This document shows positions 2,203 through 3,760 of a stretch of 8,240 nucleotides of DNA, one piece after another. A program made the translations under genes and the position numbers. Each line of letters opens with the position of its first letter. Position 1 is the stretch's first letter. Below the pieces are notes generated by a model. It did not search any database, was not told where the DNA came from, and worked only from the letters and a program-made list of their open reading frames with translations. The DNA is from an archaeon (GTDB lineage Archaea > Asgardarchaeota > Thorarchaeia > Thorarchaeales > Thorarchaeaceae): NCBI GenBank assembly GCA_024275415.1, contig JAJRZD010000090.1, positions 1 to 8,240 on the forward strand, read 5' to 3'.

Positions 2203-2991
2203 CTAATCATCTTGGAAAAACTCAACCAGCAGTCGGTTCAGACGCTCGGGCATCTGAACACCTGGACTATGACCACAATCTGGAAGTGTAACCAGTTTTG
2301 AGTTTGGGATTAGACCGGCTGCCTCTCTGGCCAGAGAAACATCGAAAATCCGGTCCTTTTCGCCATGAATAATCAGAGTTGGGACATTGATTTCATGTAA
2401 ACGTTCCTCAGCATTGAACATCGATAAGCCTAGTCCTGCAGCTAAAACGCCTTCTGCATTGAGAAGGTTCTCCTTGTTCATCAAATGGTCTATGACCTCC
2501 TTGTTCTGGTCGATGAAATCCTCCGGGTAGCAGCTCTTTATTGACGCCCAGAAATATGCCTCATCGCCGCCTTCAACTTGAGCTTCCCTCCAACCATAGA
2601 CCTCATCGACTACCTCCTCTGTGATCTTTGGCCCAGTGGATATCAGAACCAGCTTCTTGACCCGCTCAGAGAAGTCAAGAACGAATTGCTGTGCTATGAT
2701 ACCGCCCATAGAGGTGCCAGCTACCGAAACCTCATCAATCCCTATGTGATCAAGAAAGGCATTCAAATCGCGGGCGAATATTTCTGCCGTGACTACATCC
2801 ATCCCAGGTCCGGTGGAATGGCCGTGACCACGTTGGTCAAGCAAGATGACCTTGAAGTGTTCAGAGAGAGAACCTTCCTGAAACTCCCAGCCGCTCATAT
2901 CACTTCCCAGTCCATGAATAAGTAACACAGAGTCCCCCTCACCCAGAATTTTGTATTTGAGAGTGATGTCATCCAGCGCGACTTCGTTCAT
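2203..2991 (-). CDS. Alpha/beta-fold hydrolase (PcaD/MhpC-like esterase or enol-lactonase), about 262 aa
   Basis: HGLG oxyanion loop, DQRGHGHS, nucleophile elbow GTSMGG, acid in IIHGEKD, catalytic His in DCGH. Start placed at ATG 2991 (MNEV...), because a TTTAAG TATA-like box on the minus strand at about 3028-3033 overlaps the longer 3027 start. Confidence 0.93.
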   Translation of the reverse strand: MNEVALDDITLKYKILGEGDSVLLIHGLGSDMSGWEFQEGSLSEHFKVILLDQRGHGHSTGPGMDVVTAEIFARDLNAFLDHIGIDEVSVAGTSMGGIIAQQFVLDFSERVKKLVLISTGPKITEEVVDEVYGWREAQVEGGDEAYFWASIKSCYPEDFIDQNKEVIDHLMNKENLLNAEGVLAAGLGLSMFNAEERLHEINVPTLIIHGEKDRIFDVSLAREAAGLIPNSKLVTLPDCGHSPGVQMPERLNRLLVEFFQDD

Positions 2992-3071
2992 GTTCAAACA
3001 CCAAAAAACGACATGATTCCGTACCAACTTAAAGATACTCGGGACGTAAACGATAGACGGGCAACAGAGCC

Positions 3072-3086
3072 AAAACGGCTATATTG
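3072..3086 (+). promoter_or_regulatory. Putative BRE/TATA promoter of the tRNA
   Basis: AAAACGG-CTATATTG about 30-44 nt upstream of tRNA G1. A similar AAACGG...CTATATTT element precedes the 3542 gene. Confidence 0.4.
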
Positions 3087-3153
3087 GATTTGAATAGAAA
3101 TCAGATAGTAAAAGTGCCGAGATAGCCAAGCGGTCAACGGCGGTGGACTCAAG

Positions 3154-3191
3154 ATCGCGTATCAACTACATCGCTAGACCTGCGAGGAGGT
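3154..3191 (+). other. tRNA intron 1, canonical 37/38 position, 38 nt, relaxed BHB
   Basis: Central helix C32-U33-C34-A35 with GGAG (3 Watson-Crick pairs plus an A.G mismatch). Bulges A36-G37-A and G-U-A38. Inner helix TCGC(3155-3158)/GCGA(3182-3185). Confidence 0.88.
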
Positions 3192-3221
3192 ATCCACTCT
3201 CGTAGGAGTTCATGGGTTCGA

Positions 3222-3251
3222 ACAGCTATGCATTTCGCATAACTGGAGCAA
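3222..3251 (+). other. tRNA intron 2, non-canonical 58/59 (T-loop) position, 30 nt
   Basis: Central helix G53-U54-U55-C56 with GAGC(3246-3249). Three-nt bulges GAA(3220-3222) and AAA(3250-3252). Inner hairpin CAG-C-TATGC/GCATA-A-CTG. Removal restores T-loop TTCGAAT. Confidence 0.85.
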
Positions 3252-3272
3252 ATCCCATTCTCGGCACCAACC

Positions 3273-3281
3273 TCTTTTTCT
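3273..3281 (+). terminator. Oligo-T tract after the tRNA (archaeal-type terminator)
   Basis: TCTTTTTCT begins 4 nt after the CCA end. Confidence 0.55.
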
Positions 3282-3302: not shown

Positions 3303-3329
3303 GAAACCTGATAACATTCGGAAATTGAT
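3303..3329 (+). repeat. Direct repeat copy 2: isolated pyrH 3' fragment downstream of the tRNA
   Basis: Matches 1804-1830 at 26/27 nt. The flanks diverge at once on both sides. Confidence 0.92.
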
Positions 3330-3541: not shown

Positions 3542-3760
3542 ATGAACAAAAGAGCAGTTTCAGGTATTGTACTTTCAATTGTCATCTTCACAATCTGGAT
3601 AGTGATTGACATAGTCTTCTTCCCTTCGATTATAGGATCATTAGGATATCCAGTCTTCGAGATTGTAGCCTATGGCTCATGGTTTATGATAATGTTGATA
3701 CTATTGGCCATACTGTCGGTGACAAGAGCCATCCCTACTCGGTTCTTATCTGAGCGATGA
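3542..3760 (+). CDS. Small hypothetical membrane protein (2 predicted TM helices), 72 aa
   Basis: Basic N-terminus (MNKR) and two long hydrophobic stretches. TATA-like CTATATTT lies about 20-25 nt upstream of the ATG. Confidence 0.72.
   Translation: MNKRAVSGIVLSIVIFTIWIVIDIVFFPSIIGSLGYPVFEIVAYGSWFMIMLILLAILSVTRAIPTRFLSER

Follow-up and report, generated by a model that had tools for sequence, protein, structure and literature searches.

How a leucine tRNA could be produced from a gene whose T-loop is interrupted as well as its anticodon loop is the question raised by an 8,240-nt stretch of archaeal DNA, which was analysed whole and is referred to here as the window. The window is the entire contig C72 of an assembly of 3.53 Mb in 127 contigs (92.9% complete), and a reading made from the sequence alone had placed in it a tRNA-Leu(CAA) gene split by two introns, the second at T-loop position 58/59. 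Our analysis revealed that positions 3116-3269 of the forward strand are a real tRNA-Leu gene of an Asgard (Thorarchaeota) archaeon with two protein-spliced introns, the coordinates and sequence agreeing with those given in that reading. The gene occupies part of a 514-nt interval bounded by an alpha/beta hydrolase gene (2203-3027, reverse strand) and a small open reading frame (3542-3760), and has the following parts.

3070-3085, forward strand: BRE/TATA-like promoter element, CCAAAACGGC followed by TATATT, 31-46 nt upstream of tRNA position 1
3116-3153, forward strand: 5' exon, tRNA positions 1-37 (acceptor 5' strand, D-arm, anticodon stem 5' strand), ending in C32 U33 C34 A35 A36 G37
3154-3191, forward strand: intron 1, 38 nt, at canonical position 37/38 (Rfam, ARAGORN, BHB)
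3192-3221, forward strand: middle exon, positions 38-58 (anticodon stem 3' strand, long variable arm, T-stem 5' strand), ending in U54 U55 C56 G57 A58
3222-3251, forward strand: intron 2, 30 nt, at T-loop position 58/59 (Rfam, ARAGORN, BHB, conservation)
3252-3269, forward strand: 3' exon, positions 59-76 (A59 U60, T-stem 3' strand, acceptor 3' strand, A73)
3267-3269, forward strand: encoded CCA, within the 3' exon
3273-3280, forward strand: oligo-T tract (TCTTTTTC) directly 3' of the CCA, likely an archaeal transcription stop

Excision of 3154-3191 and 3222-3251 left an 86-nt class II molecule that ARAGORN called as tRNA-Leu(CAA): the acceptor stem pairs 7/7, the T-loop reads UUCGAAU, and A73 precedes the encoded CCA. 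The cloverleaf also showed the variable arm of a class II tRNA-Leu (~13 nt with a 3-bp stem). Additionally, the Rfam model RF00005 matched 3116-3266 at 33.3 bits (cut-off 29, E 5e-4) with all 71 model positions covered, and its two inserts, one of 41 positions in the anticodon loop and one of 31 in the T-loop, coincided exactly with both introns as originally placed; by ARAGORN and Rfam alike, removal of the inserts restores a canonical tRNA. In the unspliced window ARAGORN found no tRNA at all, as the sequence-only reading had anticipated of standard annotation, and the gene became detectable only once the T-loop insert was excised, when it was called as Leu(CAA) with a 38-nt anticodon-loop intron. 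The tRNA overlooked in this way, which also barely passes Rfam, is the only Leu(CAA) of the assembly, the UUG-reading tRNA with C34. Because a common finder does not see it, automated annotation would report a missing isoacceptor.

The product alone leaves the junctions ambiguous, since ATC is repeated at intron 1, where a shift of 0 to +3 gives the same product, and an A run flanks intron 2, where a shift of -1 to +1 does so. We scored all product-equivalent registers for a BHB in which each 3-nt bulge is cut behind its second base and a 4-bp helix separates the bulges, and the motif formed in the 37/38 register of intron 1 and the 58/59 register of intron 2 only; in the 59/60 register, the central helix of intron 2 falls to just 2/4 pairs. 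The two motifs consist of the following elements.

3148-3150 with 3187-3189, forward strand: central helix of the intron 1 BHB, 3 bp plus the mismatch 3151.3186 (A.G)
3152-3154 and 3190-3192, forward strand: bulges of the intron 1 BHB
3155-3159 with 3181-3185, forward strand: intron helix of intron 1, 5 bp
3214-3215 with 3253-3254, forward strand: exon helix of the intron 2 BHB, 2 bp (G52.U60, G51-C61)
3216-3219 with 3246-3249, forward strand: central helix of the intron 2 BHB, 4/4 pairs (G53-C, U54.G, U55-A, C56-G)
3220-3222 and 3250-3252, forward strand: bulges of the intron 2 BHB (G57 A58 / A and A A / A59, the slash marking the predicted cut)
3223-3225 with 3243-3245 and 3227-3231 with 3237-3241, forward strand: hairpin of intron 2, 3 bp, a mismatch and 5 bp, with a 5-nt loop

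In intron 1, C32, U33 and C34 pair with the intron while A35 opposes a G, giving 3/4 central pairs, and the exon helix is the anticodon stem. In intron 2, the exon helix of the strict motif is slipped by one register relative to the mature T-stem. The register scoring agrees in this respect with the earlier proposal that a clean 3-4-3 BHB at 58/59 needs G53 paired with the intron and a slipped exon helix. Both introns have 3-nt bulges on either side of the 4-bp helix position, with flanking helices.

The same proposal held that the precursor could have no normal T-arm before splicing, which proved correct for the T-loop, interrupted as it is, and not necessarily for the T-stem, which is kept in the predicted minimum-energy fold. 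In nearest-neighbour models of the T-arm, the conformer with the 5-bp T-stem and the intron hairpin was the minimum (-14.1 kcal/mol), followed by the 5-bp T-stem with three central pairs (-11.9 kcal/mol), four native T-stem pairs with the full central helix and a 5-nt 3' bulge (-11.6 kcal/mol) and the strict slipped BHB (-7.6 kcal/mol, 6.5 above the T-stem-keeping fold). The whole-precursor minimum-energy fold (-51.6 kcal/mol, z = -2.66) likewise retained the 5-bp T-stem and the intron hairpin. Formation of the 4-bp central helix requires at minimum that G53-C61 opens. T-arm modification may reasonably be supposed to follow splicing.

These energies bear on which form would be cut. In one account, the native T-stem pairs 49-52/62-65 stay in place, just G53-C61 opens so that G53 can enter the central helix, the slipped G52.U60/G51-C61 helix does not form and the 3' site lies in a 5-nt bulge, making a relaxed HBh' substrate in place of a strict 3-4-3 BHB; we regard this as a distinct possibility without holding it to be probable. 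The native-T-stem conformer lies 4 kcal/mol below the slipped strict BHB (-11.6 vs -7.6), the T-stem survives in the fold of the whole precursor, the exon helix is absent or almost so for the 53/54 introns of the host and the 56/57 alleles of its relatives, and the catalytic endonuclease subunit of the host has the loop lysine tied to relaxed-motif cleavage (PMC5829648). Against it, the strict 3-4-3 geometry is available and the energy models omit the enzyme. The pairs G52.U60 and G51-C61 of the slipped helix are invariant in all ten 58/59 alleles described below, which does not discriminate between the two forms, as these are invariant tRNA positions anyway.

A survey of Leu(CAA) introns in 86 genomes of the family provided the comparison against which the registers could be judged. 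Many genomes have Leu(CAA) with the canonical intron only, and T-arm introns were found at four positions.

Position 58/59: 10 genomes in four genera; central helix GUUC / GRRC; exon helix of two slipped pairs; carried by the present genome, G078, G072, G085, G056, G070, G067, G023, G020 and a degenerate second copy in G001
Position 59/60: 8 genomes (7 full genes and a 3' fragment in G024); central helix UUCR / YGAA, or AGAA with one mismatch; exon helix the intact T-stem (4/5 pairs in G050)
Position 56/57: 2 genomes; central helix GGGU / GYCU; exon helix of 1 bp
Position 53/54: 2 genomes of the same genus

The T-loop introns of Leu(CAA) in the family are all 28-30 nt long and alike in construction. 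Whatever the class, the last four intron bases ahead of the AA bulge are complementary, counting G.U pairs, to the last four exon bases ahead of the 5' bulge, except for single mismatches in the AGAA alleles and in G020, whose 58/59 allele has the intron strand GTAC and one U.U mismatch. This position-matched change of the central-helix strand is the best evidence, at the level of sequence, that the registers are correct. Among the ten 58/59 alleles, 95.6% of cells pair, compared with 24-41% in slid-partner controls, and five pairs, each of them in the intron helix, have two-sided changes. Covariation is not to be expected in the central and exon helices, whose exon strands consist of invariant tRNA positions.

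The same comparison bears on whether the 30-nt T-loop insert might be retained in the mature tRNA as an expansion, a reading to which we give almost no credence. A retained insert would break the universally conserved 7-nt T-loop, the position-matched central strand and the AA bulge are conserved, with a hairpin stem that varies by compensatory change, and the host has the full splicing machinery.

Taken together, the alleles form a series in which one orthologous gene has four intron positions within eight T-arm bases, each with a matched splicing helix, providing material for testing intron gain, shift and loss as well as the minimal exon-side needs of the enzyme. This family-wide allele comparison is a more useful by-product than the single gene. 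The hairpins of the 56/57, 58/59 and 59/60 introns showed no clear likeness beyond what the motif imposes (the 58/59 intron of the window and the 56/57 intron of G013 share about 15/30 identities by eye), so common descent by sliding is unsupported. Two members of one genus, G053 (L081) with a 59/60 intron and G075 (L084) with a 56/57 intron, have unrelated T-loop introns next to a near-identical 5' exon and canonical intron, a contrast that points to fast turnover or to replacement of the 3' half alone. That alleles slide by 1-2 nt as the intron 3' end changes, that elements inserting into this tRNA gene swap whole 3' halves and that the Asgard endonuclease has no need of an exon helix might all be true jointly, though we consider this combination doubtful.

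Two relatives contain duplicated Leu(CAA) genes. In G001, which belongs to the same genus as the host, the copies lie 2.3 kb apart (C305, L095, 2110-2216 and 4471-4615). The first is intact, has the conserved promoter and lacks a T-loop intron, and its 38-nt 37/38 intron resembles intron 1 of the window; the second has the 58/59 intron, but its acceptor stem pairs at 5/7 positions, its D-arm is shortened and its TATA decayed. The intervening 2.25 kb contains a 476-aa frame without a Pfam match, and it looks as if an insertion brought in a fresh intron-less 3' half, displacing the previous one. In G024 (C13:4400-13000, L098; also L058, L064), an intact Leu(CAA) without a T-loop intron is accompanied, 8.2 kb away, by a 5'-truncated fragment (positions 19-76) with canonical and 59/60 introns, with a TnpB-like gene and a 1472-aa frame in between. 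A Pfam search found no integrase between the duplicated copies of either genome.

Could the gene in the window itself be a decaying or untranscribed copy, with the working tRNA-Leu(CAA) elsewhere? When the exons, the mature sequence and both introns were compared by BLAST with the entire assembly, no second Leu(CAA) gene was found, so that the intron-less copy whose presence would have spoken against the earlier reading is absent from the assembled part of the genome. As the assembly, in its 127 contigs, is 92.9% complete, a further gene could lie unassembled, and in both G001 and G024 a displaced degenerate or 5'-truncated copy with a T-loop intron accompanies an intact copy without one. However, all stems of the spliced tRNA are intact, eight other genomes have intact 58/59 alleles with 7/7 acceptor stems, and the promoter motif is intact, unlike that of the degenerate G001 copy. 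The CCAAAACGGC-TATATT motif occurs at an equal upstream distance in Leu(CAA) orthologues across the family and is decayed solely in that degenerate copy, a conservation that suggests BRE/TATA promoter function; T-rich tracts also lie 3' of most Leu(CAA) orthologues. A search of sequencing runs for this sequence matched one DNA run, with a 0.13 share of words, and no RNA run. The gene is also in its ancestral syntenic position: the upstream neighbours, an AA-kinase-family gene, a small HTH gene and sometimes the hydrolase gene, lie in conserved order beside tRNA-Leu(CAA) in many family members, and the AA-kinase/HTH order recurs in other families of the phylum, so the locus is ancestral. We accordingly regard decay, with a working gene in the unassembled part, as very improbable.

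Neither intron has another copy in the assembly by BLAST, and within-genome transposition of these two introns was rejected for this reason. Separately, the locus contains a 27-nt direct repeat (26/27 identical) at 1804-1830 and 3303-3329 of the window, the former within the 3'-terminal part of the AA-kinase-family gene and the latter 34 nt beyond the tRNA CCA. The two copies flank a 1.5-kb block containing the HTH gene, the hydrolase gene and tRNA-Leu(CAA), and the pair could have been left behind by a tandem duplication or by site-specific recombination. No match to the 27-mer, allowing up to 5 mismatches, occurred in the three related loci checked.

Splicing of both introns would demand a suitable endonuclease, and the sequence-only reading had expected one of relaxed specificity in a host that it took to be possibly Asgard-like. 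The host genome has two genes matching PF01974 (101.6 and 70.1 bits), both with Pfam N- and C-terminal endonuclease domains, together with RtcB (581.7 bits), so that splicing endonuclease and ligase are both encoded. The 190-aa alpha paralogue best matches the Aeropyrum pernix catalytic subunit 3p1z_B (E 1e-43), retains Tyr, His and Lys and has in its N-terminal part the loop insert with the conserved lysine: IRKPKSPEF aligns ungapped to VEKPRGADF of A. pernix, placing K45 at the K44 position of the CSL. The second paralogue (213 aa) has Thr at the catalytic His position when aligned to 1a79 and therefore resembles a structural beta subunit. The genome thus holds the two subunit genes of an (alpha-beta)2 enzyme, one with the complete Tyr-His-Lys triad and one without it. 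Nearly all of the 24 closest relatives of the alpha subunit in reference genomes, at 67-79% identity, are labelled Candidatus Thorarchaeota, confirming the Asgard host, and the pair of paralogues with the loop lysine in alpha is what the expectation of relaxed specificity called for.

The CSL (L1) loop and its lysine (A. pernix K44) have been described as the source of broad substrate specificity, and the (alpha-beta)2 type of EndA with the L1 insert has been ascribed to Asgard archaea, a Thorarchaeota genome among them (Kaneta 2018, PMC5829648). With the TACK/Asgard (alpha-beta)2 enzymes (3p1z, 3ajv) the host shares the Tyr-His-Lys alpha subunit, the loop lysine and the non-catalytic paralogue, and nothing material appears to set its enzyme apart. 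On the sequence level, the match of alpha and beta to solved subunits is unambiguous; by likeness to solved structures, the predicted heterotetramer with relaxed-motif cleavage would be a textbook pair. As observations on the genome, the His-less paralogue is encoded at C117:29289-29930 (reverse strand), ~1.3 kb from a tRNA cluster (~27.1-28.0 kb) in which at least three tRNA genes contain introns, and ARAGORN calls a tRNA-SeC(UCA) at C69:8832-8922 (reverse strand), on the contig that also has the EndA alpha gene.

We consider it highly likely that the window holds a functional, single-copy Thorarchaeota tRNA-Leu(CAA) gene that would be transcribed from the BRE/TATA element, with two introns cut by the alpha and beta EndA subunits and exons joined by RtcB. 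The gene anatomy, the motifs, their conservation, the enzyme genes, the conserved promoter and the synteny are direct observations, and the pathway they suggest would run as follows. The conserved promoter would give a precursor of about 160 nt, from which the two-subunit EndA of the host, with its catalytic alpha subunit bearing the L1/CSL loop and its His-less structural beta subunit, would excise both introns, after which RtcB would ligate the exons. Intron 1 would behave as an ordinary 37/38 intron with a slightly relaxed BHB. In intron 2, the 3' end (GAGC, then AA) would pair with G53-C56 to form the 4-bp central helix, the body would serve as the intron hairpin and each cut would follow the second base of its 3-nt bulge. 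On the exon side the helix would be minimal, consisting of two slipped pairs or of four native T-stem pairs with a widened 3' bulge, and for that reason the substrate would effectively be a relaxed motif of the HBh' type, within the range of a broad-specificity EndA. We infer the timing of T-loop modification, the actual cleavage sites and the order of intron removal. Points that weigh against this explanation are the 2-bp exon helix with its unfavourable energy relative to the T-stem-keeping fold, the invariance that bars covariation in the central and exon helices, the A.G mismatch of intron 1, the incompleteness of the assembly and the degenerate 58/59 copy in G001.

Non-canonical and multiple BHB tRNA introns were reportedly described from Crenarchaeota, especially Thermoproteales, by Marck and Grosjean in 2003 and Sugahara in 2007 and 2008. 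Thermoproteales introns are similar to those of the window in being removed by protein splicing outside 37/38, often beside a canonical intron, from strict or relaxed (hBH, HBh') motifs in (alpha-beta)2 hosts. They differ in that the present host is an Asgard archaeon and in that intron transposition has been proposed for Thermoproteales, whereas the present genome, with no near-identical intron copies, shows no sign of it. Non-canonical or multiple BHB introns of Crenarchaeota and some DPANN, including those at 53/54, 56/57 and 59/60, have been linked to (alpha-beta)2 and epsilon2 EndA (PMC4090602); position 58/59 is not named in that review, whose position list ends in "etc." In Asgard archaea, 92-95% of the tRNA genes in three genomes bear introns (Valentin-Alvarado et al. 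2024, PMC11291895). According to a 2026 preprint on 90 Asgard genomes, introns are concentrated at 37/38 and in the T-arm, T-arm inserts lie mostly in canonical BHB motifs, tRNAscan-SE misses are frequent, introns were gained repeatedly and in a lineage-specific manner, and two EndA paralogues occur in 44/60 genomes. The published Asgard studies centre on Atabeyarchaeia and Jordiarchaeia/Freyarchaeia, whereas the present host belongs to Thorarchaeota ("Thor" is absent from the main text of the 2026 preprint), and in their available parts they do not describe this gene or the side-by-side 56/57, 58/59 and 59/60 alleles.

The kind of gene is already known, since non-canonical and multiple tRNA introns and (alpha-beta)2 EndA have been published for Asgard archaea, and the sole particular feature of this one is the 58/59 register with a minimal exon helix, common to at least nine other genomes. 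It adds a well-documented case of non-canonical Asgard tRNA introns occurring with a broad-specificity endonuclease. The rarity implied by the sequence-only reading did not hold, as T-arm introns are common in the host genome and the family and have already been described for Asgard archaea.

We scanned the host genome for T-arm introns, requiring a BHB, a consensus T-arm, a 7/7 acceptor stem and an encoded CCA, and validated the matches by ARAGORN after intron removal; the resulting census is partial, and the same scan without the BHB filter gave about 1200 chance matches, which were discarded. By the filtered scan, Phe(GAA), Asp(GUC), Lys(UUU), Ile(GAU) and one unnamed gene carry 59/60 introns, 29-31 nt long, whereas the intron lies at 53/54 in Val(CAC), Gly(CCC) and Thr(CGU) and at 51/52 in Ser(GGA), leaving Leu(CAA) as the sole 58/59 case in this partial census. 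Intron 2, the T-loop introns of other tRNA genes of the host and those of Leu(CAA) in relatives have a stereotyped build of 28-31 nt, with one bulge base, a 5-nt-loop hairpin, a 4-nt central strand and a 2-nt bulge; in those of 30 nt, the hairpin takes up 23 nt with a 9-bp stem. The 59/60 introns use the native T-stem as their exon helix, whereas the 58/59 register, shifted by one base, cannot use it intact.

The forward-strand stretch C82:8872-9093 of the host resembles a gene and finishes with a T-arm whose 31-nt 59/60 intron lies in a perfect BHB; its acceptor stem pairs 7/7 and CCA is present. ARAGORN assigned it no identity even after the 59/60 intron was excised, and it is probably a tRNA with further non-canonical introns. 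The whole-genome ARAGORN run misread several tRNA genes with T-arm introns. At C117:27095-27306 (reverse strand), it called a tRNA-Gly(GCC) with a 42-nt intron, and removal of a 30-nt 59/60 intron turned this into a tRNA-Lys(UUU) with a 27-nt canonical intron; the Gly(GCC) call is a misannotation caused by the T-loop intron.
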